DNA of 64,000 nt from NCBI GenBank assembly GCA_040773245.1, contig JAXGWO010000003.1:6629-70628 (forward strand), given 5' to 3'. This stretch comes from PVC group bacterium. GTDB taxonomy: Bacteria > Auribacterota > Erginobacteria > Erginobacterales > Erginobacteraceae. A program made the translations under genes and the position numbers. Below the pieces are notes generated by a model. It saw nothing but the letters and a program-made list of their open reading frames with translations. It searched no databases and had not been told where the DNA came from. This document shows positions 1 to 51,900 of this stretch, piece by piece. Each line of letters opens with the position of its first letter. Position 1 is the stretch's first letter.

Positions 1-5
1 TGTAG

Positions 6-3000
6 ATGACCGAAGCTGCAAATGGGATTCCGCTGCCTCCATCGGACATTCGCAAACTGCGAGAGTGCCAACGACTGGCACTGCAGAAGATCGCATCTTG
101 GCATGGACCGAAGGCGCACGAGACCTTTCTTGCTTGTATGCCGACGGGGACCGGTAAAACGGGCGTCATTGCCCTTAGCGGGTTGTATTTCGCCAAGAAG
201 GATGTGCTGATTGTCACGCCTTGGGACAACCTTCGAACCCAGATGGTAGATGCTCTCGAAGCAAAATTCTGGGAGAACTCAGGAATCACCAAGCCCGAAG
301 GATTCCGAGCAAAGGCCTTCTCCGGCAAAGACCTCGCTGACGAGTTCAAGAAGATAAAACCAGACACGCCGCGAACGTTCTGGGTTACGACGTTCCAAGG
401 CCTCTGGACGACCAGCAAAAGCAAGGAAACCTTCTCTGAACTGCGATCACGTCTCGACCTGGTCGTAATCGATGAAGGACACTACGAACCCGCTATGTGG
501 TGGGGGCACGCCGCCAAAGAGCTCAAGACTCCTACAATCCTGTTTACCGCGACGCCCTACCGCAATGATCTGAAGTACTTCCGCATTCGGGAAAAGGATG
601 TGTCGCACTATAAATACAAGGATGCCGTAACTGAAGATGTCATTCGGCGCGTTGCGCCGACGCCACTCGGAGAAGCTGGAGGGTCCACTGAAGAAATTGC
701 GGCTGCCATCGCCGAGAAATGGAGTAGCGCCAAGAAGCGCACCTTGGCGAACCCGCATCCCAAGATGATTGTTTGCTGCCGCAATTTCCAAGCGGTAAAG
801 GCGTACACCCTCCAACTGGCGAAGCTTGACCTTCCGGTTATCGGCATTCACATCCGCGCGACTAAGAAGCATCTGTCGGCCAAGCAGCTGAAGCTCTTCA
901 GAAGCAAAGTACCGAAAGACCCTTCGGATGAGTCAGCAGAGATATGGGTTCACGAGAAGATGCTCACCGAGGGACTCGACCATCCGCCCTTCTGTTCGCT
1001 CGCAATCACCTACAATATGAGAAATGACCGCAAGTTGATTCAGCAAATCGGCAGGGTTGTGCGGCGAGCTAATGATGATCGGCATAACAACGCCGTTGTT
1101 TACTCGGTTGGCGACGCCTGCGTCGATGCCAGTTGGGAATCGTTTCAGGATTTCGAGGATGACTTTCGTGTGGTCACCACCGAGTACTACAGAGACTTCA
1201 TTGACAACCACCTGAGCAATCAACCTGCGGTGGAGTACTTCGGCAAGCGATTCAGGCGACAACTTGTACCCAAAGAGCTTTCCGCAGAGGTGGCGGGGCG
1301 CGAACTGCTTTCTCTTCCGAGCGTCATAGCGCGTCGCATTGGTGACAACTTTGATATCGACAAGTTCGTCTACGACGTAACCGATAATATCCAACTGCAA
1401 GAGGATTTCGTTGCTCTCGGCCCGATCAGGGACTCGCCGGTGTTATCGCCAGAGGACACTGCGCCCGTGAAGGGAGCGGTGTGGTTATATTGTAGGTTTT
1501 CCAACTCGCGTGCGTTACTTGCGCATTCTGCTTATGAGGTGAAGCTCTCGGCTCTTTGTGTTGTCCTGATCAATCCCTTTCTGTTTGTTTCCGATACGGA
1601 TGCGTTTGTGCCCGCGGAATCTCTTGAGAAACACACCTTCCCATTGCGTCTATCTGACCTGCGCCGAGCGTTCGCAAGTGGGTACCTGCCCACGCAAGTG
1701 CAACTGAAGAACTCCCTACCACACCAAAGCGTGGTACGTGGGACGACACGGTCAGGCAAGAACCTTGCGGAGGTACCCAACTCGCTCACCGAATCAAAGT
1801 ACATCTGTAGTTCGATTCGCGGGAGAAACCCGACCGAAGGGCGTAGGTATGTAGGCTTCACTACTGGACGTCTAAGCGATGATCGAAATGGTATGCGGCG
1901 CTACGAAATGTGCTTCACTGACTTAATCAGGTGGTGTGAAGAGGTTGCTAGGGTGCTGCGGACCTCTGCTGCCACTCACACCTTCTTCCTGCGATTCGCA
2001 CGCCTTGTAGACCCACCTGCGGCGATTGAGCCACACTATGGTTTCTTGGACTTCTGGTCTGGTGCCTTCACGCTCGTGGATCAGGACGGCAACACCAGGG
2101 AACCGATGGATGCCGTGTTTCAGTTTATTCCTGAGGATGCCGATGGAGACGATAAGACGACCAAGGCTTACAGGTTCCACATCCGCGGTGAACTCGACGG
2201 CAAGGAGGAAACAGCGGAGTTGAGAACCTTCTGGCGGGATGGACGATTTCACTTCAAAGCGGTCGAAACCAACGGCCTGGTCATCCGAGAGGCCATAACA
2301 AGCTCTAGCGGTGAGCAAGAATCTACCAGGGACGTTGAGATTGCCTCCTTCTGCAGCCGGAAGCAAGGCGACCTGTTCATTTCACTTGCCTCAAGTAACG
2401 TGATCTTCAATAGCGGAAGCTTCTTCGAGGTCGATCCTACGAGCAATTATTCAGACCTTGGCGGCATGTTCATCGGTTGCGATGAACTCAATCGGGAAGG
2501 ACTTTCCGAGAAGAACCCCAAAGGCAAGAAAAGGATGAAGAGCTGGTGCAAGCAGTCAATCTTCGGAATTGCCAGTTCAGACTCCTTTTTAGCCCGAGAG
2601 TTCGGTGGCAAGCCGGATCTGATTGTGTGTGACGACGGCTCCGACGAGATTGCCGACTTCGTCCTCGTCCAGTTCGATCCACCGAAGTTCGTGCTCGTCC
2701 ACTGCAAGTCTAAACCGCGTAAGGACGACGACAAGGAGCTGCGCGCTGTCTGCGAGCTCCAAGAGGTGGTGTCACAGGCATCAAAGAACCTGGTGTATAT
2801 GTCTGGGCGAAGTCAGATTCCGCCCCACATTGACGAGTGGACGAAGACCAAGAACGTGTACGGTTTCCAGGTGCCGCGGCTACTGCGCAAGGTTGGCACG
2901 AAGCTCTCGGGAACAGCTCTCTGGAATCATATCAGCGACAATGTCCTGCTCAGCAGAAACACAGAGAAGGAAGTGTGGATCATAGTCGGGGGCGCACTCA

Positions 3001-3149
3001 CAAAGTCATGGATCGACCGCGAACTTGCGAAGTGCAAACGAGCGCAGTCGAACCTGGCGTGTCTGTTTCATATGGTTGACGGCCTGAGCGCCTCTTGTAC
3101 GGAAGCCAACGCCAGGCTTAAGGTATTCTGCAACTCCGGAGATAGCTGA
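6..3149 (+). CDS. SF2 (ResIII/DEAD-like) helicase fused to a C-terminal Mrr-like PD-(D/E)xK-type nuclease-like domain; 1047 aa
   Basis: Complete SF2 motif set in the N-terminal ~360 aa: motif I MPTGTGKTG (nt ~139-165), Ia IVTPWDNL, II VVIDEGHY (DExH, nt ~463-486), III TATPYRN, VI QQIGRVVRR. C-terminal region has CDDGSDEIADFVLV ... VLVHCKSK (nt ~2614-2715), resembling the Mrr_cat DGxxD ... QCK core. Lower GC than downstream host genes. Stop overlaps next start (TGATG). Confidence 0.6.
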   Translation: MTEAANGIPLPPSDIRKLRECQRLALQKIASWHGPKAHETFLACMPTGTGKTGVIALSGLYFAKKDVLIVTPWDNLRTQMVDALEAKFWENSGITKPEGFRAKAFSGKDLADEFKKIKPDTPRTFWVTTFQGLWTTSKSKETFSELRSRLDLVVIDEGHYEPAMWWGHAAKELKTPTILFTATPYRNDLKYFRIREKDVSHYKYKDAVTEDVIRRVAPTPLGEAGGSTEEIAAAIAEKWSSAKKRTLANPHPKMIVCCRNFQAVKAYTLQLAKLDLPVIGIHIRATKKHLSAKQLKLFRSKVPKDPSDESAEIWVHEKMLTEGLDHPPFCSLAITYNMRNDRKLIQQIGRVVRRANDDRHNNAVVYSVGDACVDASWESFQDFEDDFRVVTTEYYRDFIDNHLSNQPAVEYFGKRFRRQLVPKELSAEVAGRELLSLPSVIARRIGDNFDIDKFVYDVTDNIQLQEDFVALGPIRDSPVLSPEDTAPVKGAVWLYCRFSNSRALLAHSAYEVKLSALCVVLINPFLFVSDTDAFVPAESLEKHTFPLRLSDLRRAFASGYLPTQVQLKNSLPHQSVVRGTTRSGKNLAEVPNSLTESKYICSSIRGRNPTEGRRYVGFTTGRLSDDRNGMRRYEMCFTDLIRWCEEVARVLRTSAATHTFFLRFARLVDPPAAIEPHYGFLDFWSGAFTLVDQDGNTREPMDAVFQFIPEDADGDDKTTKAYRFHIRGELDGKEETAELRTFWRDGRFHFKAVETNGLVIREAITSSSGEQESTRDVEIASFCSRKQGDLFISLASSNVIFNSGSFFEVDPTSNYSDLGGMFIGCDELNREGLSEKNPKGKKRMKSWCKQSIFGIASSDSFLAREFGGKPDLIVCDDGSDEIADFVLVQFDPPKFVLVHCKSKPRKDDDKELRAVCELQEVVSQASKNLVYMSGRSQIPPHIDEWTKTKNVYGFQVPRLLRKVGTKLSGTALWNHISDNVLLSRNTEKEVWIIVGGALTKSWIDRELAKCKRAQSNLACLFHMVDGLSASCTEANARLKVFCNSGDS

Positions 3150-4282
3150 TGGCTCGATCGAGCAAACTAAGGGTGATGATCTCGAGCAGATGTAATGACG
3201 TGTTTCCTCACGGCAGCGGCTCAGGAAGGACACTCTCGGATATCCGCCGTGATCTGAAGAAAGACATCGAAGCCGAGAAGGTACTTGGTAAGAAGACCTT
3301 TGATGTGTGGATCAATGAGGAGTCTCCGCCAAAGGGTGGCACCTGGGATAGCTGGGACACGTGCATTAAGGCTGCAAAAGATTGCGACATACTCCTGGTT
3401 CTGACGAATGGCAATGCTGGATGGGCTGGCGCGGCAGGAGATATCGGAATATGCCACGCGGAATTGTCGACAGGGCTTTCGTCCGCTCCTGGGAAGGTGT
3501 GGCTGATTTCTTTGGGGGACATCCCGTGTCCAGCCACTGCGGAAGGGAATCGCAACAAACGATTCCAAAATTTCGTGAACACCCAGAGCCTCTTCCGTGG
3601 AGGAGTCGTCAAGACAGAGGCTGACCTCAAGAATCGTGTAAAGGAGGCCCTGCAAAATGCTGTCGTTGACCTCGTGCAGAAGGGCGTTGCCGAGGCGAGC
3701 CGCGGGAAGTTCCACAGCGGCGCAGCGCTCGACTGGGATCGCCTAGATTTCGAAAATCGGCGGAGCAAGATGAAGTCGATAGTCCGCGATACCCTTCAGG
3801 GGCGATTAGGCACTAAGTCAGATGGGGATCATGAGGTTGTGAGTATTGGAGGAAAGGAAATCCTGCTTGTTTCCGATGCTATCCCTGCCGCCATGTCGAT
3901 ATCGGCAGCGCGGGAAAAGGTTGGACAGCCATTTCTTCATGACCACCTGTTAGTCGCTTCACTCAAGGGGGCTCGCGGAGGACCTGTTCACATCATTGCC
4001 TGTCACAAGGGCGTGACTGAGGCGCAAGCGCTTCGAATGCTTGGCTTCCCAGATGCAACCGTTGTGAACACGCCATTTGGAATCTATCTTGCGGACGGCA
4101 TACAGCGCATCCAGCTTGTGTTGATCTCCGGGTGCAGAGATGAGTCGACCACACGACATGGCATCCAAAGGTTCTTCGATTGGCTCCAGCAGACAGGCGA
4201 GGATAGACTGCTTGCACAAAGAGCTGTGTCACGAGCGAAGATTGTGGCCGTCATCTCAAAGGAGTTAGCGGTCGCCAAATGA
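3149..4282 (+). CDS. Hypothetical protein with DUF4062-like N-terminal domain (VMISSRCNDVF ... DIRRDLKKDIE); 377 aa
   Basis: ATG overlaps upstream stop by 1 nt (translational coupling). N-terminal pattern hISSxxxD ... DLKxxxE recalls the DUF4062 domain found at N-termini of many defence-island proteins. Remainder has no motif I can name. Confidence 0.45.
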   Translation: MARSSKLRVMISSRCNDVFPHGSGSGRTLSDIRRDLKKDIEAEKVLGKKTFDVWINEESPPKGGTWDSWDTCIKAAKDCDILLVLTNGNAGWAGAAGDIGICHAELSTGLSSAPGKVWLISLGDIPCPATAEGNRNKRFQNFVNTQSLFRGGVVKTEADLKNRVKEALQNAVVDLVQKGVAEASRGKFHSGAALDWDRLDFENRRSKMKSIVRDTLQGRLGTKSDGDHEVVSIGGKEILLVSDAIPAAMSISAAREKVGQPFLHDHLLVASLKGARGGPVHIIACHKGVTEAQALRMLGFPDATVVNTPFGIYLADGIQRIQLVLISGCRDESTTRHGIQRFFDWLQQTGEDRLLAQRAVSRAKIVAVISKELAVAK

Positions 4283-4291
4283 GGGCGGCGT

Positions 4292-4513
4292 ATGAAACAC
4301 CTCACTCAAACAGACCACGTATGGTCGCAGTTGGGTGACAATGCACTACTAAAGAATGCTTGGCCCCGGCTTTTTGTCGAAGAAATGGAATATGCAGGAG
4401 CAATTGCGCGAACAACAGCATACAGCGGACGGCGCTTCGCGCCGCCGCTGATGCTGAGCGTTCGGCAAAAAGAAATAGGAATCACCTATCGCAAATCGTC
4501 AATAGGAGATTAG
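4292..4513 (+). CDS. Small hypothetical ORF (73 aa) in the 232-nt gap between the DUF4062-like and HerA-like genes
   Basis: ORF exactly fills the intergenic gap and has a weak GAGGG upstream. No recognisable motif. May simply be a spacer or internal promoter region. Confidence 0.15.
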
Positions 4514-4514
4514 G

Positions 4515-6656
4515 ATGACTGACATCGTATCGAATCTGGCCGGAAGGTTAAGCGAACCGGAGTTGAGCGAGCCCCTGCAAGCGGCCAGCCGGGCGCTGAC
4601 AGCCCTAGTTGAGGACACCGCCTACGTCGGCGAAGTCTACTCGCTCGGATACGACGAAGCCCTTGTCCAGATACACGACTTCCACCGCCAACGGGTCGGC
4701 GGCATTCCTGCGCTCTCCTTCTTGATCGCTACCCGTGTCGGCACTGGCGCCTTGGCAGACGTGCGACAGGAGGACGCCTCCATCGTGCTCCTACGTGTTC
4801 TTGATAAAGCCGACCTACCCAATGCGGACGAAGCCCTGCGCGTCCGAGTCGAAACGGCACAGCGGGTAAGCGGTGAAGTAACTCGGCACTGGGACGACCG
4901 GACCGTTATGGACCCGACGACGCACAATCTGCTCAGCTACGCTGGCGTCCGATGCCGAGTGCTGGGAACCTATTATATGGTCAACGCCGGCTCCGACAAC
5001 GCCCCCGTGTTCCGCCTCTTCTTCGGCTCGGACCTCAGTAACTACTACCCCAACCGTGGCCTGAAGGTCTTCAAGCCGCGCGGCAGCGTGCTGGAGGACA
5101 TCGTCAACTTCCGTGACCCCCGGCTGCCTGTTGCCGCACACGACGGCGATGTCTCCATCGGACAGGTTCGCTACGCTTCGAGCCACCGGCCCTTCCAAGG
5201 CATCGACGGTGTGCCAGTGCAGATCACGCCGACGGACCTTCTCGGCCAGAAGACCGCACTCTTCGGGATGACACGTACCGGCAAGTCGAACACTACGAAG
5301 ATCATTCTCAAGTCCATCTTCGCCCTCAGGTGGGGCCACAACCCGATTCGTATCGGCCAGATCGTCTTCGACCCGAACGGCGAGTATGCAAACGAGAACG
5401 AGCAGGACTCCGGAGGCAAAGGACTCAACGCCGAAGCAATTAAGAACGTCTGGAAGTGCGGCCCGGCCGCTCAGCACCAGCGATTGCAGGCGGATGTCAT
5501 TACCTACGGCATCATGGCACACCCAAACGATCCCCACCGGAGGCTGATGCTGCTGAACTTCTACCTCGACGCCAATCTCCAGATCGGCAAGGAGATCATC
5601 AACGATGCGCTGTCGGACCAGACCTCCACCTACCTAAGCAACTTCCGGAACGTCACGTTTGACCCGCCCGACGCGAATGATCGTTCGGCCGTGACCAGAT
5701 ACAACCGTCGCGTTCTCGCCTACCGAGCGTTGCTATTCAAAGCCGGGCTGCAAGTGCCAAGCAGCCTGAGGCCAAACACCCGCAACCTGTTCAATGCGAA
5801 TCTGTTGGCGACCCTGCATACGGACGCACAGAATGGTACTGGCAAGTCGCCCGCCGACTACGGCGTCTGCGCAACCATTCTCGCCAAGCAAACGCCGACG
5901 TGGGCTGAGCTTGCCCAAGCGTTTGAGATACTCCGCGACTACATCGCCGATAGTGGCTCCGGCTGGGGTGCGTTCAACGCGGCTTACGTTCAGACAAGCA
6001 GTTCTGGCTCATGGGCAGACGACGACCTCAAGAAGATTCTGGAGATGTTCGCCTATCCCAACGGCTCCCGCCTGATCGGGCGAGTGAAGGAGCAGCACAC
6101 ACCGGACACAAGCTCCGACTATGCCGCTGACATCTACGAACACCTCAAGCAAGGCCGGCTGGTAATTGTCGATCAGTCGAGCGGCAATCCCGAAATCAAC
6201 AAGGCGGCGGCGGATCGGGTGATGCGGCTAATCTTCGAAGGGCATCAGCAGCAGTTCCGCACGGCACAGACACCGCCCGAGGTGCTGGTGTATGTCGAGG
6301 AGGCCCACAATATCCTACCGTCCTCGCGGGAGCTTGACTTCCAGGACATCTGGGTCCGCTCCGCGAAGGAAGGGGCGAAGTATCACATCGGCTTAGTCTA
6401 CGCGACGCAGGAGGTGAGTTCGATCCAGCAGAACATCCTGCGAAACACGGTCAACTGGTTCATCGGCCATCTAAATAACACCGACGAGACACGCGAAATC
6501 CGCAAGTTCTACGACTTCGCCGACTTCGAGGGTAGCATTCTCCGTGCCCAGGACAAGGGCTTCGTCCGTGTGAAGACACTATCAAACCCGTATGTCATCC
6601 CGGTGCAGGTGGACCGCTTCCTTATCGAAGACACCTCGAACCCTCAGGGGGCGTGA
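4515..6656 (+). CDS. HerA/FtsK-like (DUF87-type) P-loop ATPase; 713 aa
   Basis: Strong SD (AGGAG, 9 nt upstream of ATG). Walker [15 protein letters not shown] (nt ~5261-5300). Walker B with HerA-typical hhhhDEAH-like [14 protein letters not shown]-terminal region consistent with a HAS-barrel-like segment. Size typical of HerA-family ATPases. Confidence 0.55.
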
Positions 6657-6657
6657 C

Positions 6658-8022
6658 GTGCCATACGACGGTGAATACGCGACATACCGCCCTCTGCATC
6701 GGATCTCCGAGTGCCAAAGGGTGACGAGCCTTCTTGCCCGATCCAAGCTCTTGGAGGTAGCACGGGCCACCTACGCCCCGAAGCCCGTCGAAGCTCCTCC
6801 GCAGGCGCCAGCCTTGCCGCGGTTCATACTCGCGATAGACGGCAGCTACGCTGAAGTGGACGTGAAGAACGGCTATCCGGGCGCCAAGGTCGGCTACTGC
6901 ACTGCGGCGAGTGTGCTCCTTGACCTACACCTCATCGGCGAACTGGATGAAGAGCGTCCGGTTGATCCCGTCGAGTTCCGCAAGACAGAGCAAGCCGCAA
7001 GCGTCGACGCCGCGCTGCCGGGCAGCAACGTGGTCACGCGAAGGCAGAACTCCGCGCGGGCGTCGTTCCGCGAGGAACTCTACGACCTCTTCACCGACAT
7101 CGTCGTTGACGAAGACGACCGTATGAACTTGCTCTCGACCTACGAAGCACTGCTGGTGCTGAAACCGACGGCCAATCCTCAGAGTTGCCCATACAAGGAG
7201 TCGCACGGTTGCACGGCGGCATTCGCGGTTGGCTCCGGTTGCACGATGTGTCCGACCTGCGGTCGTCCCGTATACTCCACCGACGCCCTTCGCATCCATG
7301 AGCGGTTCAGGGACATCGGAACAAACGGCGAGGCGTTCGGCCTGGTAATGCAGGTTATGGAACGGCTGCTCGCAATCCATTTCCTCCGATGCTTTGAGCG
7401 CCGCAATCTGCTGCAACGTCTCCCGTCGCTCGCATTCTTCATCGACGGTCCATTGGCGGCGTTCGGCCCGCCGGCTTGGCTGAGCGCCGCTATCAGCCGG
7501 GAACTCAAACGACTCAATCAGAAGGTGCAGGCCGCAACCGGCCAGGACCTCTTGATCTTAGGCATCGAAAAGACCGGGGTTTTCGTGCAGCACTTCGAAG
7601 AAATCGACCAAACGGAAACGCCGGGACAGCAGCTTTTCTCCGCGCGGCAATACATACTCCTGACGGACGGCTATATCAAGGATCGTATCCTGCACTCCGA
7701 CAGCCACAAGCGGTACGGGGAAGATACCTATTTCGGCCGAAAGTTCTTCTACAAGGCGCAGAGTGGGGCTCGGATCGTCGCCAGCATTCCGTTTCTATCC
7801 GATGCTCAAGACACCATAGCCAATGACGACATCTCTCTCTATCCACAGTTCGCTGCCGTCTGCACGCTCCTGGATCGCGTGGTGTCGTCACGTTACGCGA
7901 ACTCGGTGTCGCCGTTGATTGCGGCCAATGCCCAGGCCGCTATCCCGCTGCAACTCGGATCGAAGGTGTTGACGCAACTGGCGAGGGCGCTTCTAGGAAC
8001 TGCTGAGAATGGCAGGAAATAG
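6658..8022 (+). CDS. NurA-like nuclease-domain protein with inserted Cys4 zinc ribbon; ~455 aa from GTG 6658 (ORF track alternative start ATG 6592 would overlap upstream gene by 65 nt)
   Basis: GTG at 6658 lies 1 nt after the HerA-like stop. N-terminal RFILAIDGSYAEVD (nt ~6824-6860) matches NurA motif I (catalytic Asp in IDGS). A second FFIDGP occurs later. CPYKESHGC ... CTMCPTCG cluster at nt ~7190-7265. Gene order ATPase then nuclease mirrors HerA-NurA operons. Confidence 0.4.
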   Translation: MPYDGEYATYRPLHRISECQRVTSLLARSKLLEVARATYAPKPVEAPPQAPALPRFILAIDGSYAEVDVKNGYPGAKVGYCTAASVLLDLHLIGELDEERPVDPVEFRKTEQAASVDAALPGSNVVTRRQNSARASFREELYDLFTDIVVDEDDRMNLLSTYEALLVLKPTANPQSCPYKESHGCTAAFAVGSGCTMCPTCGRPVYSTDALRIHERFRDIGTNGEAFGLVMQVMERLLAIHFLRCFERRNLLQRLPSLAFFIDGPLAAFGPPAWLSAAISRELKRLNQKVQAATGQDLLILGIEKTGVFVQHFEEIDQTETPGQQLFSARQYILLTDGYIKDRILHSDSHKRYGEDTYFGRKFFYKAQSGARIVASIPFLSDAQDTIANDDISLYPQFAAVCTLLDRVVSSRYANSVSPLIAANAQAAIPLQLGSKVLTQLARALLGTAENGRK

Positions 8023-9121
8023 CAAAACCTTCGGCACCGCGGCGAAGAGGTGGGAGGGAATCGGCCCATACTACGCCATGTTCCCGATTCGATTTGCCGA
8101 CGCGGTTATCAAAGAGCATACGGCAGCGGGTGACACAGTGCTTGACCCGTTCGCCGGCCGCGGGACCGCGATCTTCAGCGCATCGGCACTGGGGAGGCGC
8201 GGGTTCGGCGTTGAGATAAGTCCTGTCGGATGGGTCTACGCGAAGGCCAAGCTGGGCCCCGCGCCTCCGGAGCAAGTCGAGCAACGGCTACAGGAGATTG
8301 CTAATGCGGGCAGAGTCTATGCCGAGCAAGCCCGGTCTCTGCCGGAGTTCTTCAAGAAGTGCTTCTCTCCGTCTGTTCGGCGCTTCCTGCTCGCCGCGCG
8401 AGATGGACTCGACTGGCGTAGATGCACTTGCGACAGGACACTTATGGCGATCCTACTCGTCTACCTGCACGGGAAGGAAGGCCAGGCACTATCGAACCAG
8501 ATGAGGCAAACAAAGGCTATGTCACCGCAGTACGCCATCCAATGGTGGATTGAACACGGATCGAATCCGCCTGACTTAGATGCGGTGGAGTTTCTGCAGC
8601 AGCGAATCCGCTGGCGATACGCGAAGGGCGTGATTGAGGCGGATGACAGCCGGATTTTCCTGGGCAACAGCATCACCGTCCTTCCGCAATTGGCGAAGCG
8701 AATGCGCGAAGAGAAAGCCCCAAAAGCGAAGCTCTTGCTCACATCACCGCCGTACTTTGGCGTTACGAATTACCATTACGACCAGTGGCTTAGGCTCTGG
8801 TTGCTAGGATTTGAGACCGACGCCTACGTGGCCCGAGGGCCATACCAAGGCCGGTTCACCCATCCTGTCCGCTATCGAAGCTTGCTCAATAAGGTCTTCT
8901 GCCGCGCGGCGAAACTGATCGCGGACAACGCAGTGGTCTACGTCCGCACTAGCAAGGACCCGTTTACCAAGAAGGCGACGCTTGATACCATGCTCAAAGC
9001 CTTCCCGAAGAAGCGGCTGATCGAGCGATGCCAGCCATTCCGAAAACCGACGCAGACATTCCTTTTCGGCGACAACACGCCGAAGGCTGGCGAGGTAGAC
9101 TTAATCTTGTTGCCATCATGA
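8009..9121 (+). CDS. DNA methyltransferase, N6-adenine/N4-cytosine family (N6_N4_Mtase-like); 370 aa
   Basis: AdoMet motif I VLDPFAGRGTAIFSA (nt ~8140-8180) and catalytic motif IV LLTSPPYFGV (nt ~8744-8770; SPPY typical of N4C/N6A MTases). Order I ... IV with ~200 aa between. Start overlaps the NurA-like gene end by 14 nt. Confidence 0.75.
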   Translation: MAGNSKTFGTAAKRWEGIGPYYAMFPIRFADAVIKEHTAAGDTVLDPFAGRGTAIFSASALGRRGFGVEISPVGWVYAKAKLGPAPPEQVEQRLQEIANAGRVYAEQARSLPEFFKKCFSPSVRRFLLAARDGLDWRRCTCDRTLMAILLVYLHGKEGQALSNQMRQTKAMSPQYAIQWWIEHGSNPPDLDAVEFLQQRIRWRYAKGVIEADDSRIFLGNSITVLPQLAKRMREEKAPKAKLLLTSPPYFGVTNYHYDQWLRLWLLGFETDAYVARGPYQGRFTHPVRYRSLLNKVFCRAAKLIADNAVVYVRTSKDPFTKKATLDTMLKAFPKKRLIERCQPFRKPTQTFLFGDNTPKAGEVDLILLPS

Positions 9122-9221
9122 GAAACGAAACACAGTATGGGTTCCTAATGGAAGCAGCGCAATAGCCGATTGTGGCGGGCGATCCACTTTGCGGTCAGCC
9201 TCTGAAACGGGCTAGGAGGAA

Positions 9222-10151
9222 ATGACTATGCCGAACTTGGAAATCGCGGCTAGAAATTTCATAGGAACCTACACCTCACTAAACGGCACCACTATTCAGC
9301 CTATCAGTCGATTCGCCCTTCTCCGGTCCATGATCACTGTCGGGTATAAGTGCGAGGCCGACGCGATCGGGTATGGCTGGCGGAGTATCGGTTGGCATCT
9401 TTCGACCTGCTTTCTCACCATCGCTACGACCGTATCGCGGAACGGCAACTTGGTCGTATCTAAGCTTTTCCACTCCCTGGATTCATCCGAAAAGAATATG
9501 GTCAGCTACCGCTTGGGGATGGGTCTAACCAAGTACACTGCGGAAGTCAAACTCAACGTCCCGTGGCTCGTACACCTGGACAAGATATTCAATGCTGGTG
9601 GACTAACCTTGCAGGACGGGACTCTCGAACGTGGAGACCTTGCTGGGCAAGACGGCGCTGGGGTATGGCATGTGGTAGAGGCAAAGGGCAGATCCAATCC
9701 GCCATCCGGCAAGCTCCTCACCAAAGCCAAGAATCAGGTCTCGCGCGTTACCTCCATTAATGGACAGCCCCCGGCCACCAAGTCGGCGTCTATCATCCAT
9801 TTGTACAGAGACCCCATCAGAGCCGAATTGGTTGACCCACAGAAGCCGGAGAAGAAGCCACTCAAGATCCAGATATCGCTCGGTAAGTATTTCCCAACAT
9901 ACTATGCCATTCTCCTTCAACTCCTCGATCTCTCCGAAATACAGTCTCACGTGGTTGGCGATGTACCCTTTAGCCTGACTCCCTTTGATTTTGGTGGCAA
10001 TGTGATCGGAATCGGCCTTGCTGACGCTGTTCGGAGGAATCCCACGGAAGCCCAGAGATTAACAAAGGAAATTCTGGCGATGGACCTGCGGCAGCGGGAG
10101 AATCCAAAGAAAAGCATTGGCCTTGATGGGGTGATTGTGGCGCAAATGTGA
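9222..10151 (+). CDS. Hypothetical protein, possible PD-(D/E)xK restriction-endonuclease-like partner of the methyltransferase (start more likely ATG 9228, which has AGGAGG 8 nt upstream)
   Basis: Segment RGDLAGQDGAGVWHVVEAKGRS (nt ~9640-9700) fits a D-x(n)-ExK core. Sits immediately downstream of a DNA MTase. No other recognisable motif, so the functional call is weak. Confidence 0.3.
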   Translation: MTMPNLEIAARNFIGTYTSLNGTTIQPISRFALLRSMITVGYKCEADAIGYGWRSIGWHLSTCFLTIATTVSRNGNLVVSKLFHSLDSSEKNMVSYRLGMGLTKYTAEVKLNVPWLVHLDKIFNAGGLTLQDGTLERGDLAGQDGAGVWHVVEAKGRSNPPSGKLLTKAKNQVSRVTSINGQPPATKSASIIHLYRDPIRAELVDPQKPEKKPLKIQISLGKYFPTYYAILLQLLDLSEIQSHVVGDVPFSLTPFDFGGNVIGIGLADAVRRNPTEAQRLTKEILAMDLRQRENPKKSIGLDGVIVAQM

Positions 10152-10992
10152 CGGCAGCCCCAACAAGAGCATCCAGCCCTACAAACGGGCCGCGCGGATG
10201 CGGCTCTTTTTAAGGCTGAAGCTCGCCGTTGATCTGAATAATAAGATGCGGCACCAAAAGAATATCATTGCCTTTAATGGCAAAGCACGCGGTCCGTCCG
10301 AAGAGAAGGCGCGAGTGGCGTTTATCAATAAAGCCTCGGGGTTATTATTCATCGCAGCAAAGGAGGCCGCAAAACGTGCACTAAGAGCATCAGGCACACT
10401 CGGGGAGCAAAATGAGGCAATGACCGCTGTGGTTCTGTGCGGAGTAGTCGCAGAGGCCAGCATCAATGAAATCAGCGCGTGGTATGAATCTCATCATCTT
10501 CATCCCCAGTTCAGCGTTTCGCATAATCTTCCATATGGCTTTGACCGCTTGGAACTCCGTGTCAAGTGGTCATTGTTCCCGATGATTGTCAGGCAACGTA
10601 GTTTCAACACTGGTGCCGAACTATGGCAGAGCTTCAATGCTCTAGTTGAACTCCGCAACTTCATTGTTCACCTTCGAGATCGCCCCCTATCAAAGTCAGT
10701 CAATGGATTACTAAGATCAAAAAAACTGATAGAGGAGCACCATAGTTTTCTTGGCTTTCCGGTTGCACAGTGGGCCTGCGAAACCGTTGCTTCAATGTTC
10801 GAAGAGCTTACCAAGTTGGTGGCACCACCTCAGGAATGGATACCAATCGTCTGGCATTGGACCCCAACTCATTCGTTCCCTTATGGCTTGTCGACACCAG
10901 GTGATTCGTTTGTTGAAACAGAAAGCAAGAAGCTACCAACAAGACGATCTAGGGGAAGGATCACTCGCAGTGGGTTCGCCACCCGTGAATGA
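10135..10992 (+). CDS. Hypothetical protein (285 aa; true start uncertain, internal ATGs at ~10197 and ~10246)
   Basis: Last ORF of the low-GC plus-strand array. Codon usage like the island genes. No motif recognised. Confidence 0.3.
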   Translation: MWRKCDGSPNKSIQPYKRAARMRLFLRLKLAVDLNNKMRHQKNIIAFNGKARGPSEEKARVAFINKASGLLFIAAKEAAKRALRASGTLGEQNEAMTAVVLCGVVAEASINEISAWYESHHLHPQFSVSHNLPYGFDRLELRVKWSLFPMIVRQRSFNTGAELWQSFNALVELRNFIVHLRDRPLSKSVNGLLRSKKLIEEHHSFLGFPVAQWACETVASMFEELTKLVAPPQEWIPIVWHWTPTHSFPYGLSTPGDSFVETESKKLPTRRSRGRITRSGFATRE

Positions 10993-11146
10993 TAGCGTTG
11001 GCCAACCAGAACAGGAGGCAAACTATAGGAAAAGCAAATGACAAGAAGGTTGTTCGCAATGCACTATACATCCTTAGAACGAACAGTTATTGGCCGAGGC
11101 AGAAAACATAAATCGAAAACTGGGGGCGAAGACGTTACTGAATCGC

Positions 11147-12553
11147 TTACCACCAGCCCGGATAGGGAGGGACAAGGAAGAGGCGGAGGTGGAGGTCGCG
11201 GACTACTCTCAGGAGGAACTTGATAGCCCGCCAGTTTAGGGCCTTGAGGTTTCGGCGGAGGAAATAGAGGATGGTTGCGGGGTCGCGCTGGATTATCCGC
11301 ACTATCTTTTTGGAGGCGGCGGTTAGGTCGGAGTAGAAACTGGTCCAGGGGAGCTTGATCCAGGGCCAGGGGCCCTGCAGGTTCCAGTCGCCCTGCAGGG
11401 TTCCGTTCTTTTTGGCCTCCTCGTAGACCTCGGTTCCGGGGAGGGGATAGAGGACGGGGACGAAGCCTACTATCGGTTTGGCCTGGCGGAGGAAGGCGAT
11501 GGTTTCTTCGACGGTCTCGGGGGTCTCGCCCGGGAAGCCGACCATTATCTCGCCGTAGCAGCCAATTCCGGCTTCCTTGGTCAACCGCGCGGCTTCCAGG
11601 TTTTGAGCCACCGTGGTCCCCTTCCCCATCGCCTCCAGCACCCGGTCCGACCCGGACTCGAAGCCATAGACGATCTGCTCCACCCCTGCCCTCTTCAATT
11701 TCTCCAGCAGTTCCCGATCGACGGCGTCAACCCGGGAGCGGATCTTAAGCCGAAAATGGTATCCGCCACGGACCAGTCCATCGGCGATCTCCAGGCAGCG
11801 GGAACGGGCGGCGGTGAAGGCGTCGTCCTGGATGTGGACCGACCTCACCCCGCGACGCCGCAGTTCCTCGAACTCCACCATCAGGTTCTCGACGGACCGG
11901 ACGCGGCACTTCTTCTCCACCTGGAAACAGAATCGGCAGTTATAAGGACAGCCCCGGGAGCTGATCATCATATCCAGTTTTCCCCGGGCGGCCAGGTTCC
12001 AGTACAGGCCAGCTTGGTAGTAGCGGTCGAGGTAGCTTCGGTCGAGCGGGGGCAGGAGGTCGAGGTCCTCGATCCGGTCGGGGGGGTTGGAGGCGATCCC
12101 GCCTTCCGTCCGGTGAACCAGGCCGGGGACTTCCCGGGCGGGGATCTTTCCTTCCAGCATCTTGACCAGGGCGGGGAAGGAGCGGTCGGCCTCCCCCCGG
12201 ATGGCGTAGTCGAGCTGGGTAATCTTCTCCAGGGTCCACTCCGGCCGGGCGGTGGGGTGGGGACCGCCGACGACCATCGCCGCGTCGGGGAGGTAGGTCT
12301 TCATCCGCCGGGTGATCCGGTCGAAGGGGATCAGGTAGGGGGTGTAGCAGGTCAGTCCGACCAAGTCCGGGCGGTAGTCCCGGATCTCGGCGAAGAAGGG
12401 GTCCATCCGGCGGAACTCGCCGGAGTAGTCGAAGATCCTCGCCTCCTCCCCCGTTTCCCCGAGCTGGGTGGCCAGCCGGCAGAGGTGGAGGGGGGGGTAG
12501 TAGCCGGTGGACCTACCCTGGAAGGCGTCGTAAGCAACAAGGGCGATCTTCAT
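11147..12553 (-). CDS. B12-binding domain radical SAM protein; 468 aa
   Basis: N-terminal cobalamin-binding-like region (MKIALVAYDAF ... DLVGLTCYTP). Radical SAM CxxxCxxC: SSRGCPYNCRFCF. High-GC host-type codon usage begins here. Confidence 0.8.
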   Translation of the reverse strand: MKIALVAYDAFQGRSTGYYPPLHLCRLATQLGETGEEARIFDYSGEFRRMDPFFAEIRDYRPDLVGLTCYTPYLIPFDRITRRMKTYLPDAAMVVGGPHPTARPEWTLEKITQLDYAIRGEADRSFPALVKMLEGKIPAREVPGLVHRTEGGIASNPPDRIEDLDLLPPLDRSYLDRYYQAGLYWNLAARGKLDMMISSRGCPYNCRFCFQVEKKCRVRSVENLMVEFEELRRRGVRSVHIQDDAFTAARSRCLEIADGLVRGGYHFRLKIRSRVDAVDRELLEKLKRAGVEQIVYGFESGSDRVLEAMGKGTTVAQNLEAARLTKEAGIGCYGEIMVGFPGETPETVEETIAFLRQAKPIVGFVPVLYPLPGTEVYEEAKKNGTLQGDWNLQGPWPWIKLPWTSFYSDLTAASKKIVRIIQRDPATILYFLRRNLKALNWRAIKFLLRVVRDLHLRLFLVPPYPGWW

Positions 12554-48984: not shown

Positions 48985-51900
48985 GTGACGGGCACCGGCG
49001 AACGCGGGCCTTTCCCGGACCCGGCGTTTGACGCAGCCGGAAATTGTTCTCCAGTAAAAATGACAAAGTTCGGATTAAAAAGGCTGGCGGCCGGTGGCCT
49101 GAGGTGGGCCAACCGCTTTCCTCCCTCCCGGCGGGTGCTGGCCACCGCCTCCCGGCACTACCGGGCTTTTTTAGGCGCTTATTACTGGGGACTGGCCGAC
49201 GGGATTCTCCGATTCCGGAAGCGGCATCTTCCCGAGACGGGCAATGAGCCGGGACCGCTCTCCTTCCTGGGCGATTTAAGGTCATTAAGCGGCCGGCCGG
49301 CGCCCGAGCCTTATTCGGCCTGGGAGGAAGTGAACCGCCTCCACCCCAACAAGCGCAGCCTCCTGGCCGGCCGGCTCCAGGGGGAAGAAGCCGCTGCTGA
49401 AGACGGGCACCAGATATCCGTCCCGGCGGGAGGGGGCAGCGCCCGCCTCACCGCGGTTGACCATTTCGTCTCGCTCCTGATCGACCGGCAGGTGGAGGCG
49501 GTTTCTTTCGACCTGTTCGACACGCTGGTCGGCCGGCGGCTGGAGCGGCCCCGCGATTTATTTTTGGTCATCGACCGGAAACTGGCCGGACGCTGGCCTC
49601 TCCCGAGGCCCTACTCCAGTTACCGGATCTCCGCGGAGGAGGCGGTCCGGAAGTCCTCTCCCCGGGAGGAGGTAACGCTGGCGGAGATCTACGATGAACT
49701 GGCGCGGGCGGCCGGATTGGACGAAGGCGCCAGAACGGAGCTGCTCAACCTGGAGATCGAGACCGAGCTTAAATTCATTCGACCCCGGCCGGCCGGGGTC
49801 GAGCTCCTGAACCAGGCCCGGGAACAACGGCGCCGGATTTATCTGGTCTCCGATATGTACCTGGGGCGGGAAGAGATCGAACGGATACTGGATTCCTGCG
49901 GAATGGGAAAATTTTCCGGGATCTACCTTTCCTCGGAGGAAGGGAAGACCAAGCATTCCGGGGGACTCTTCGAGCTGTTCCTCCGGCGGGAGCAGCTGGC
50001 GGCGGGAAGGGTTCTCCACGTCGGGGACAACCGCCACAGCGACCGGGACGTCCCCTCCCGCCTGGGACTGGAGACCTTCCTCGTCCGGCCCCCCGCACCC
50101 CCGGCCGGCGGACCGGACGGGAAAGACGGCGACCGGCTGGCGGATGGTATCTTTTCCGCCCTGGAGCGGACGGTCCTCTCGGAGACCCGGCGAGTCCACG
50201 GAGAATTCGGGCCCCGGTACGGGGGAGATCCTTTCCTTCTGGGCTACTGCGCCCTCGGCCCCCTGCTGCTCGGGTTCACCTCCCGCATCTGCCAGGCGGT
50301 CAGGAACGGAGACTTCCCGCGGCTGTATTTCGTCTCCCGGGACGCCTATTATTTCCAGGCCTGTTACGAACTGATCCGGAGACACGACCCCGCCCTTCCC
50401 CCTTCAACCTATCTTTACTCCTCCCGCAAGCTGATCTACCGCGCTTCAATGGCCGACGGGGCGGCGATCGCCGAGGCCGCGGACCGCGACTATTTCCCTG
50501 CCCGGCTCCGCGACCTCTTGACCGGCCGCTTCTGCTTCAGCGACGGGGAATGCTCCGCCCTCCCCGCCGGGCTGCTGGAAAAGCACGGTTTCTCATCTCT
50601 CGACGACCGGGTCGAGAAGACGGCCAACCACCGGCAGCTGCTGGGACTGGTGCTCGCCTGCCGGGAGGAGATCTGCCGGCAAGCCCGGCGATACCGCGAA
50701 CGTTACGTCTCCTACCTGCGGGAGACGGTCGCGGACGGGCCGGGGCTGCTGGTGGATATCGGCTACAGCGGGACCCTGCAGAGGTTCATCCGGGACCACG
50801 CCGGCCGGGAGCTGGAGGGCCTTTACCTGATCGTCCTGGATCGCATATCCGCCCTGAAGCGGGAGGGCTCGAGATTCCAGGCCTATATCCGGCCGGGCGA
50901 CCCGGAGCACCCCCGGTTTTTCCGCCACGTCCAGATGTTCGAACTGCTGTTATCCGCCCGCCATCCCTCGGTCATCGACGTGGGCCAGGACCCGGCGGGC
51001 CGGTGGGCGCCCGTGTACGACCGCCACCGGGTGCCCCCCGGGAGCGCGGACGCGCTCGAACGTCTCCACCGGGGCGCCCTGCAGGCCGCGGAAGACTTCC
51101 TGGAGCTGACCCGGGAGTCCGTCACCGCCGGGACCTGGGGGGCCGGGCGGGCGATGAGGCGCCTGCTCGACTACCTTGACGCTCCCGATTACGCCGACTG
51201 CCTTCACTGGGAAGATCTGTTCTTCGAGGACTCCTTCGCCGGGCGCAGCCGGCAATACGCCTTCTCTCGAGGCTCCGGACCCGGACCGGTCTGGAAGGAG
51301 GGGGAGGCGGCCCGCCGGACCCCGATCGAACCCCGACTGATTCCATCCGGACGAGCCGCCGGCGAGGACCGGCCGGATCACCTGCACGACCCGCTCCCCC
51401 TTCCCGGCAACGCAGATCACCTGACCCTGTGGGCTTTCTTCCGGGAAGGGGAGGAGGAAGAGCTCCGGAGGCTGCTCTTCTCGCTCCGGCACCAGATGTA
51501 TTCCGCCTGGACCCTGATCATCGGACTGGAGGCGGGACTGAAAACCGCCTTCGATCGCTGGCGGGAGATCCTGCCGCCGGGAGGCGGCCGGATCCGGACC
51601 TCCTTCTTCCCGCCGGGGGAGGAATCCTTTCGGCGGTTCATCGAAATGGGCGTCGCGGGAGAAAGGTTCGGCTGGGGATTTTTCTGCCTCCCCGGGGTCA
51701 AGCTGAAGCCGGAGGCGCTGGCCGAAGTGGCAGCGGCGCTGAAAGAAAACCCGGATTCTGACGGATTTTATTGCGACGAGATCAGGGTTCCCGCCGGAGG
51801 CGAGCCGCGGACTTTTTTCAAACCCGACTGGTCGCCGGAACTCCTGCTCTCCGGCCCCTACCCCGGCCCGTTCTGGGGGGGGAGAAAAGACTTCTGGAAT

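Follow-up and report, generated by a model that had tools for sequence, protein, structure and literature searches.

The 1047-aa protein encoded at the start of the window (the whole 64-kb stretch of DNA analysed) is best explained as a self-contained ATP-dependent helicase-nuclease that, with a probability of roughly 55%, protects the cell from phages or other mobile DNA as a one-gene system. A role as a single-gene immune protein is probable because the family is widespread in islands of mobile and anti-phage genes. The domain anatomy (as predicted), the residue conservation, the solitary behaviour of the gene and its genomic context were computed here; that the protein is an ATPase and a nuclease, that it acts on DNA, that it serves in defence, and what triggers it, are inferred.

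The open reading frame list gives the gene an ATG start, and its coordinates (Table 1) include the stop codon. An in-frame TAG, seen in a longer contig, lies immediately 5′ of the ATG, and thus the N-terminus is complete. An identical protein (P0001) is present on 6 public contigs. Its full-length homologues number more than 800, among them Terriglobus roseus WP_083344300.1, Alcaligenes WP_429641506.1 and a copy on a plasmid of the Bacillus cereus group, and all of them are named "DEAD/DEAH box helicase" in the databases and nothing more; about 650 residues of the protein are without any Pfam model. At a 50% identity cutoff the family falls into at least 1459 clusters; it is found in more than 10 phyla, on plasmids and in a prophage. 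One member, P0240 (1444 aa), has a duplicated helicase. Matches of about 590 aa were considered as helicase-less stand-alone versions, but the first residue of those inspected is V or L, and they seem to be open reading frames cut short in metagenomes.

Table 1. Features of the helicase-nuclease gene and its product, with positions in the window
Feature	Residues	Position	Strand	Basis
Complete helicase-nuclease gene	1-1047	6..3149	+	ORF list, identical protein on public contigs, homologues
SF2 helicase/translocase core, two RecA-like lobes	1-365	6..1100	+	Pfam, PHROG, PDB profile, motifs
Helical linker	366-404	1101..1217	+	AF2 secondary structure, invariant columns
Predicted RdgC-like alpha+beta module (boundaries approximate)	about 405-665	1218..2000	+	AF2 fold match
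Beta-rich domain, no specific assignment	about 666-825	2001..2480	+	AF2 model
Predicted C-terminal PD-(D/E)xK-fold nuclease domain	826-1047 (core 850-1047)	2481..3146	+	AF2 fold
Invariant E835 and near-invariant K836 ("EKG" family motif), before nuclease core	835-836	2505..2525	+	conservation
Putative active-site segment, "D...HxK" motif	C875 to K901	2628..2714	+	positions, AF2 strands, invariance
Invariant Q924, K927, N928 on long helix after strand 3	924-928	2775..2792	+	conservation, AF2

The initial annotation placed helicase motifs I to VI in the first ~360 aa, and this was borne out. All SF2 motifs lie within residues 18-354 and are kept across the family of homologues: a Q-like motif LRECQ (residues 18-22), motif I MPTGTGKTG (45-53), Ia TPW (71-73), II DEGH (156-159), III TAT (181-183), IV KMIVCC (253-258), V TEGLD (321-325) and VI QQIGRVVR (346-353). 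Residues 17-186 match Pfam ResIII (E=3.5e-14) and DEAD (E=2e-12), residues 248-354 give a weak match to Helicase_C, and the core matches PHROG 16, "DNA helicase", with E=2.7e-24. The protein is an SF2 helicase of the ResIII/DEAD type. Searches of the PDB with the full protein and with the family profile returned matches to the helicase lobes only (RecQ5, UvrB, XPB, RadD); the best matches of the family profile are UvrB, XPB/Rad25 and RadD.

Residues 366-1047 show no sequence match in Pfam, NCBIfam or the PDB, and to that extent the earlier description of ~450 aa in the middle with no nameable motif stands. However, AF2 models of this portion, with pLDDT of 90-93, divide it into four parts: a linker, a module resembling RdgC, a domain rich in beta strands and, at the C-terminus, an alpha/beta domain. 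The linker helices are at 373-385, 387-390 and 392-404, with conserved W377 and E384, and the following module starts with a conserved QPxxEYFxxRF motif (406-416). The solved structure closest to the model of this module is RdgC, considered here together with the RexA / IML3 / CHL4 / CENP-L/N fold group (PMC11077077). RdgC is a free, ring-forming dimer, whereas the module described here is an internal domain and has no sequence homology to it. Pfam RdgC (PF04381) does not match the protein, and hhalign of the middle region with an RdgC alignment gave a probability of 0.2%, with an RdgC profile that is shallow (Neff about 1.8), since the sequences returned for it were all enterobacterial and at >=85% identity.

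The C-terminus had been likened to the Mrr_cat core on the basis of two strings, CDDGSDEIADFVLV and VLVHCKSK. Both were located, at residues 875-888 and 896-903, and a PD-(D/E)xK fold is predicted for the domain that holds them. The Mrr_cat assignment itself was not upheld: Mrr_cat (PF04471) gives no Pfam match in the full protein at E<=0.1, nor in the C-terminal domains of 30 members at E<=10. The Mrr_cat motif, which we take to be D...QxK, differs from that found here, D884...H899-C-K901. Searched singly against Pfam at E<=10, the C-terminal domains gave scattered single matches only, and the top PDB match of a profile built from the 30 sequences, at E=0.52, is spurious. In the AF2 model, C875-D876-D877 end strand 1, E881 is in a loop, D884 starts strand 2 and H899-C-K901 end strand 3. 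C875, E881, D884, F885, H899, K901, Q924, K927 and N928 are invariant in alignments of 40 and of 120 homologues, although identity to the protein is only 22-33%, and, as judged from these alignments, such conservation is far beyond chance. By one mark of membership the domain belongs with the PD-(D/E)xK superfamily, and D884 and K901 are at the positions expected on strands 2 and 3, as judged from the secondary structure of the model. The D/E position of the (D/E)-x-K motif is occupied by His899 in every member, with a family pattern H[AC]K, and the divergent members P0144, P0190 and P0240 also carry HAK or HCK. Structural matches of the modelled nuclease domain include AspBHI, McrC and LlaBIII, and the CdiA-CT EC869 DNase is among the top ones. 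Upx, a dual-nuclease protein without a helicase, was also considered and was set aside, having the nuclease fold alone in common.

One computational counterpart is PDC-S71 of PADLOC (PDLC05077), a computationally defined single-gene candidate for phage defence. Positions 78-588 of its 589-position profile match residues 508-1043 (E=1.3e-23), and the profile matches 8 of 9 family members tested at 1e-29 to 1e-48; its coverage leaves out the helicase and the initial 100 residues of the RdgC-like part. The match scores are moderate (82-163 bits), and thus the family is a relative of the PDC-S71 seed rather than the seed itself. Literature searches found, among the papers covered, no publication on PDC-S71, and none describing this architecture under RdgC combined with helicase, nuclease or defence.

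Two characterised defence systems are analogous to the protein, but not homologous. Hna is a helicase-nuclease abortive-infection protein of Sinorhizobium meliloti (PMC13381803), with 845 aa, a DinG/XPD-like SF2 helicase, a reduced Arch domain and a PD-(D/E)xK domain, but without the RdgC-like or beta-rich insert. Identity with Hna was rejected on helicase class, length and lack of a sequence match. Hachiman is made of two proteins, with the gene for HamA (a DUF1837 nuclease) preceding that for HamB (an SF2 helicase). The motif of HamA is a canonical ExK (mutated to E138A/K140A in the solved structure, 8VXY), whereas HxK is found here, and the likeness of the modelled domain to HamA is one of fold only. 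PADLOC gave no HamA match in any member tested, and neither HamA nor HamB matched the protein at E<=0.1.

The comparison with Type III Res and Type ISP restriction proteins, made in the initial annotation, holds only in outline. As in Type III Res (e.g., EcoP15I), a ResIII helicase is followed by a C-terminal endonuclease domain, but there is no Mod partner (no gene is a conserved neighbour in 78 loci), an RdgC-like and beta-rich insert of ~450 aa is present, and HxK replaces ExK. A single chain of a Type ISP enzyme (LlaGI/LlaBIII) unites a nuclease and a helicase with a methyltransferase and a target-recognition domain; the last two are lacking here, and searches of Pfam and PADLOC detected no methyltransferase or recognition-domain match within the protein, in agreement with the earlier statement that no methylase is fused. 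The PADLOC type IIG model gave a marginal match to the helicase lobe only (E 0.034). Structural similarity to Mrr-like nucleases (Mrr, the Type ISP LlaGI/LlaBIII nuclease domain, AF1548) is weaker than that to FokI (2FOK, with active-site residues D450/D467/K469) or HamA.

Across the 78 loci no neighbouring gene is conserved, methyltransferases included. Around the gene lie type I R-M and other defence genes as well as integrases and transposons, and the family's genes sit in low-GC islands, plasmids and prophages, with no fixed chromosomal neighbourhood. Among 105 neighbour proteins scanned, the methyltransferases in the top-25 table are N6_Mtase (3), Eco57I-type (2) and UPF0020 (3), none of them recurrent. 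R-M loci often enclose the gene; replacement of HsdR there was rejected, since in each of the three loci checked an HsdR-like protein is encoded close to HsdM as well. This setting, a solitary helicase-nuclease without a cognate methylase, would suit a Type IV-like modification-dependent restriction enzyme with SauUSI/McrBC logic, in which the middle domains read modified bases, the motor translocates and the nuclease cuts modified foreign DNA. The resemblance of the nuclease domain to AspBHI, McrC and LlaBIII is consistent with such an enzyme, and the large middle region could serve as the reader module. It is nevertheless unlikely: Pfam and fold searches of the protein detected no modified-base reader (SRA, DUF3427, YTH or similar), and RdgC, which the middle region matches best, is a non-specific DNA binder.

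The arrangement in the window itself could suggest a multi-gene system. The gene is one of eight co-directional, tightly packed genes (6-10992), its stop overlaps the start of the next gene (TGATG), and downstream are a DUF4062 protein and a HerA-NurA-methyltransferase cluster. Either or both could be partners, for example with the sole methylase of the window (8009-9121, in this other gene cluster, 4.9 kb downstream) protecting self DNA, and the 377-aa neighbour also adjoins the 74%-identical homologue P0004, at 75% identity. However, synteny among copies that are 74-100% identical says little, homologues at 50% and 30% identity are without these neighbours, and at one locus (L010) the pair is present without HerA or NurA. 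The DUF4062 family moves independently into other operons and, according to two 2026 preprints, is a single-gene NADase defence; a 1015-aa ResIII protein beside a DUF4062 gene in another locus (L095) is unrelated (BLASTP E=0.044). A multi-gene system is very unlikely. Just as improbable is a housekeeping helicase-nuclease of DNA repair or recombination, comparable in function to RecBCD, AddAB or UvrB, with the RdgC-like module modulating recombination. The best profile matches of the helicase and the recombination-associated nature of RdgC point that way, but the mobile surroundings described above and a very patchy occurrence do not: 174 loci, a lower bound from a scan with two exact peptide patterns, among 185,579 species genomes. 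Finally, the His899 found in every member could mark a catalytically dead fold, used for DNA binding or regulation only in a pure translocase or sensor, and inactive restriction-endonuclease-like folds do exist. Yet the (near-)invariance of D884, K901, E881, D876/877 and Q924/K927/N928 is as expected of an active site, and active relatives tolerate a non-acidic residue at this position, QxK in Mrr/LlaGI and SxK in the CdiA-CT EC869 DNase, itself one of the top structural matches; loss of activity seems very unlikely.

In the preferred reading, a stand-alone defence protein, the N-terminal SF2 motor with its DEGH box would bind DNA and translocate along it or unwind it, and the RdgC-like and beta-rich modules would hold or recognise DNA and may mediate dimerisation. 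The C-terminal domain would cut DNA at a putative metal-dependent site formed by D884, H899 and K901, with E881, D876/D877 and Q924/K927/N928 in a supporting part. Since the gene is not accompanied by a methyltransferase, discrimination of self from non-self is probably not based on methylation; the cue is more likely to be a DNA structure, a modification of the DNA or some factor from the phage, as for Hna and Hachiman. A bolder version, possible but doubtful, is that of an undescribed, widespread single-protein immune system in which an RdgC-like DNA clamp couples the SF2 motor to a His-containing (D-HxK) nuclease, and the protein senses the DNA ends of invaders, or intermediates of their replication or recombination, rather than methylation status. 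If the D-HxK nuclease is read correctly, the histidine would imply a metal chemistry unlike that of canonical restriction nucleases.

Bacterial immunity has come to use helicase-nucleases repeatedly (Hachiman, Hna, Nhi, Cas3, Type I/III R subunits), with differing triggers. The domain assignment provides targets for point mutants (K51 of Walker A, D156/E157, D884, H899, K901), a domain definition usable by annotation resources, and a possible link of the RdgC/RexA DNA-binding fold with defence. If activity is confirmed, the family would add one more single-gene defence system, and a new active-site variant, to bacterial immunity and the restriction-endonuclease superfamily, respectively.

The helicase-nuclease is encoded by a 1047-aa open reading frame with an ATG start. 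In a longer public contig with an identical gene, a TAG lies in frame immediately 5′ of this ATG, thus the N-terminus is complete. The full set of SF2 helicase motifs that the initial annotation placed in the N-terminal ~360 aa is located inside residues 18-354, and residues 17-186 match Pfam ResIII (E=3.5e-14) and DEAD (E=2e-12), with a weak Pfam Helicase_C match at residues 248-354. Residues 366-1047 gave no match in Pfam, NCBIfam or PDB sequence searches, in agreement with the description of a middle region that has no nameable motif. The two C-terminal strings quoted in that annotation are present as well, CDDGSDEIADFVLV at residues 875-888 and VLVHCKSK at residues 896-903. What the initial annotation observed is correct throughout.

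Positions of features in the helicase-nuclease (residues) and in the window (nt)
Feature	Position	Detail
Helicase-nuclease ORF	window 6..3149 (+)	1047 aa
Q-like motif	residues 18-22	LRECQ
Motif I	residues 45-53	MPTGTGKTG
Motif Ia	residues 71-73	TPW
Motif II	residues 156-159	DEGH
Motif III	residues 181-183	TAT
Motif IV	residues 253-258	KMIVCC
Motif V	residues 321-325	TEGLD
Motif VI	residues 346-353	QQIGRVVR
Helical linker	residues 373-404	AlphaFold2 secondary structure
Alpha+beta module	residues about 405-665	AlphaFold2 secondary structure
Beta-rich domain	residues about 666-825	AlphaFold2 secondary structure
Alpha/beta domain	residues about 850-1047	AlphaFold2 secondary structure
DUF4062-like gene	window 3149-4282 (+)	377 aa; ATG overlaps helicase stop (TGATG)
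Tightly packed cluster	window 4292-9121 (+)	begins with 73-aa ORF
HerA-like ATPase	in window 4292-9121 (+)	713 aa; DUF87; PADLOC HerA and mad8 matches
NurA-domain nuclease	window 6592/6658-8022 (+)	
N6/N4 DNA methyltransferase	window 8009-9121 (+)	overlaps NurA stop
ORF	window 9222-10151 (+)	309 aa; no Pfam, NCBIfam or PHROG match
ORF	window 10135-10992 (+)	285 aa; no Pfam, NCBIfam or PHROG match
Giant multi-glycosyltransferase	window 48985-54171	1728 aa; ordinary host gene

Residues 361-1047 were modelled with AlphaFold2 from a 120-sequence alignment (mean pLDDT 90.4, pTM 0.85). The module at residues 405-665 is labelled RdgC-like by predicted fold, and tentatively so, because sequence support is absent: the middle region does not match Pfam RdgC, and hhalign of the family middle region gave a probability of 0.2% against an RdgC alignment of little depth, since the sequences retrieved for it were all enterobacterial. 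Structural matches to the beta-rich domain are generic (TBP-like or helix-grip).

In the predicted structure the C-terminal domain has a PD-(D/E)xK fold; modelled separately, residues 820-1047 reach a pLDDT of 92.8 and a pTM of 0.92. The core of the initial reading, a helicase joined to a restriction-type nuclease fold, therefore withstands the refuting condition set for it, evidence that the C-terminus has some other fold. The highest-scoring structural matches are FokI (7.7; 126 residues, 3.3 A), N.BspD6I (7.4), HamA of Hachiman (7.0; 146 residues) and two chains of CdiA-CT DNases (6.9 each). These are followed by the R.BspD6I small subunit (6.4), Upx (6.3), SfsA (6.1), SduA (5.8), LlaBIII (5.7), NucS (5.6), Cap4, Can2 and AspBHI (5.4 each), McrC, HindIII, AF1548 and Avs3 (5.3 each), an EcoP15I chain (4.8) and Hna (4.7). 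The proposed link to Mrr_cat and to Type III and ISP enzymes holds only at the level of the superfamily and as analogy. The protein is not a member of Pfam Mrr_cat. It shares the domain order of Type III Res but has no Mod, and it lacks the target-recognition domains of Type ISP enzymes and also, as had been pointed out, their fused methylase.

The homology search yielded 833 proteins (E<=0.001). Of the matches listed, 120 in number, nearly all are 980-1095 aa long with query coverage of 95-100%, and none has a more specific name than “DEAD/DEAH box helicase”. Alignments of 40 and of 120 members, which for the most part are only 22-33% identical to the query, show residues E835, C875, E881, D884, F885, H899, K901, Q924, K927, N928, P939, W945 and W973 to be invariant, and K836, D876 and D877 to be kept in at least 90%. 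A profile of the final 233 residues, run against 1.84 billion cluster representatives, matched 1459 clusters with E<=0.001, 893 of them with E<=1e-10. The domain is C-terminal in every case, and the length of complete proteins is ~960-1090 aa. The shorter matches inspected have V or L as their first residue and resemble truncated ORFs; P0240, a metagenomic protein of 1444 aa, carries two tandem helicase modules before the RdgC-like, beta-rich and nuclease region. H[AC]K is retained in all of these.

With one genome scanned per species, the family gene turned up at 174 loci, a lower bound since the scan relied on two exact peptide patterns. The loci are in Verrucomicrobiota, Acidobacteriota, Chloroflexota, Planctomycetota, Actinomycetota, Bacillota, Bacteroidota, alpha-, beta- and gamma-Proteobacteria, Spirochaetota, Atribacterota and one Hodarchaeota archaeon. 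Clustering of the 555 ORFs that flank the gene at 78 loci (at most 4 genes on each side) revealed no conserved partner gene; the largest cluster, HsdM, is present at 7 of the 78 loci. The 105 nearest large neighbours matched 109 different Pfam families, with type I R-M subunits, integrases, other ResIII/DEAD/SNF2 helicases, DUF4062, SIR2_2, AbiEii-type ATPases and Eco57I-type methylases recurring. At three loci (L013, 148-5880, with the order HsdM-[helicase-nuclease]-HsdS; L019; L055) the gene is inside or adjoins a type I R-M cluster. A role as replacement R subunit was rejected there, and the gene is regarded as a passenger, because an HsdR-like gene is also encoded.

The settings of individual homologues vary. 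Megaplasmids carry copies in Mycobacterium avium, the Bacillus cereus group and rhizobia. On the M. avium plasmid pP7a (396 kb; L102, 5932-8946) the homologue adjoins a Tn7-like TnsA/TnsB/TnsC set, and in Mycobacterium abscessus prophage prophiT36-1 (L101, 5800-9285) gene 86 adjoins three consecutive tyrosine integrases; neither has an annotation beyond ‘DNA helicase’ or ‘DEAD/DEAH box helicase’. An Alcaligenes homologue immediately follows a tyrosine integrase and is close to MmeI, YopA and RhuM genes, and two metagenomic contigs have phage-like genes around the homologue. The Terriglobus roseus homologue lies among ordinary chromosomal genes, with an HNH gene.

In the window, G+C is 54-59% in bases 1-12,000 versus 62-69% in 12001-64000, where ordinary host genes such as an MFS transporter, RecJ and an OEP/AcrB RND efflux system are found. 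The rise, near 12 kb, is where an island acquired by horizontal transfer ends on the right. All four contigs shown with an identical gene (L001-L004) begin at one point, 78 bases before the window starts; this suggests that the assembly breaks at the island's left edge, perhaps at a repeat or the end of a mobile element.

The adjacent 377-aa protein belongs to a strikingly conserved DUF4062 family (>1300 matches at ~60-65% identity, many phyla); the window copy scores under the Pfam threshold (E=0.0042). According to two preprints of 2026, DUF4062 proteins are single-gene defences of the TIR-like NADase kind, named Swarozyc and Evangelion. Family members occur within a type I R-M operon, HsdM-[DUF4062]-HsdS-HsdR (L092), and within a BrxR-ResIII-methylase-[DUF4062]-UvrD operon (L095); the former is the same passenger pattern as that of the helicase-nuclease. 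The pairing of helicase-nuclease and DUF4062 gene is retained at a 74%-identical homologue and is absent beside homologues of 50% or 30% identity. Further downstream, positions 4292-9121 look like a HerA-NurA-methylase defence module, and the 285-aa ORF has a marginal HEPN-like PADLOC match (RTasHEPN, E=0.0086).

That the helicase-nuclease forms part of a larger system with these neighbours is improbable: neither the 73-aa ORF, the HerA-like, NurA and methylase genes nor the two ORFs downstream accompany the family elsewhere, and thus the left 11 kb is a defence island of several, probably independent, systems. We give similarly little credence to a housekeeping enzyme of repair or recombination. 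A catalytically dead nuclease fold is equally doubtful. The putative active-site motif is an invariant “D...HxK” variant, whose residues we take as equivalent to the PD-(D/E)xK catalytic residues. Active relatives have non-acidic residues at the His position: Mrr and LlaGI carry QxK, and the CdiA-CT EC869 DNase, a Zn-dependent enzyme that ranks among the top structural matches, carries SxK. A Type IV-like, modification-dependent enzyme is somewhat less improbable than these, and still unlikely.

The best-supported reading, at a probability of about 0.55, is a self-contained ATP-driven enzyme that acts by restriction of invading DNA or by setting off abortive infection; its enzymatic activities and defence role are all what we infer. 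The SF2 motor would engage DNA, the RdgC-like and beta-rich modules, which may dimerise, would hold or recognise it, and the D-HxK domain would cut it. Because no methylase co-travels, self/non-self discrimination is probably not methylation-based. The logic is like that of Hna and Hachiman, which likewise couple a PD-(D/E)xK nuclease to an SF2 helicase, but no profile or sequence match places the protein in either family; its helicase class differs from that of Hna, and Hachiman comprises two proteins, not one. The closest catalogued relative is the PADLOC single-gene candidate PDC-S71, itself uncharacterised and without mention in a literature search, which matches residues 508-1043 (E=1.3e-23) and eight of nine family members tested (1e-29 to 1e-48). 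Helicase-nuclease fusions in defence islands are unsurprising in themselves. What is new is a widespread, unannotated single-chain helicase-nuclease with a putative RdgC-like insert and, in its putative active site, a His-containing variant motif, a family that supplies clear, testable targets.
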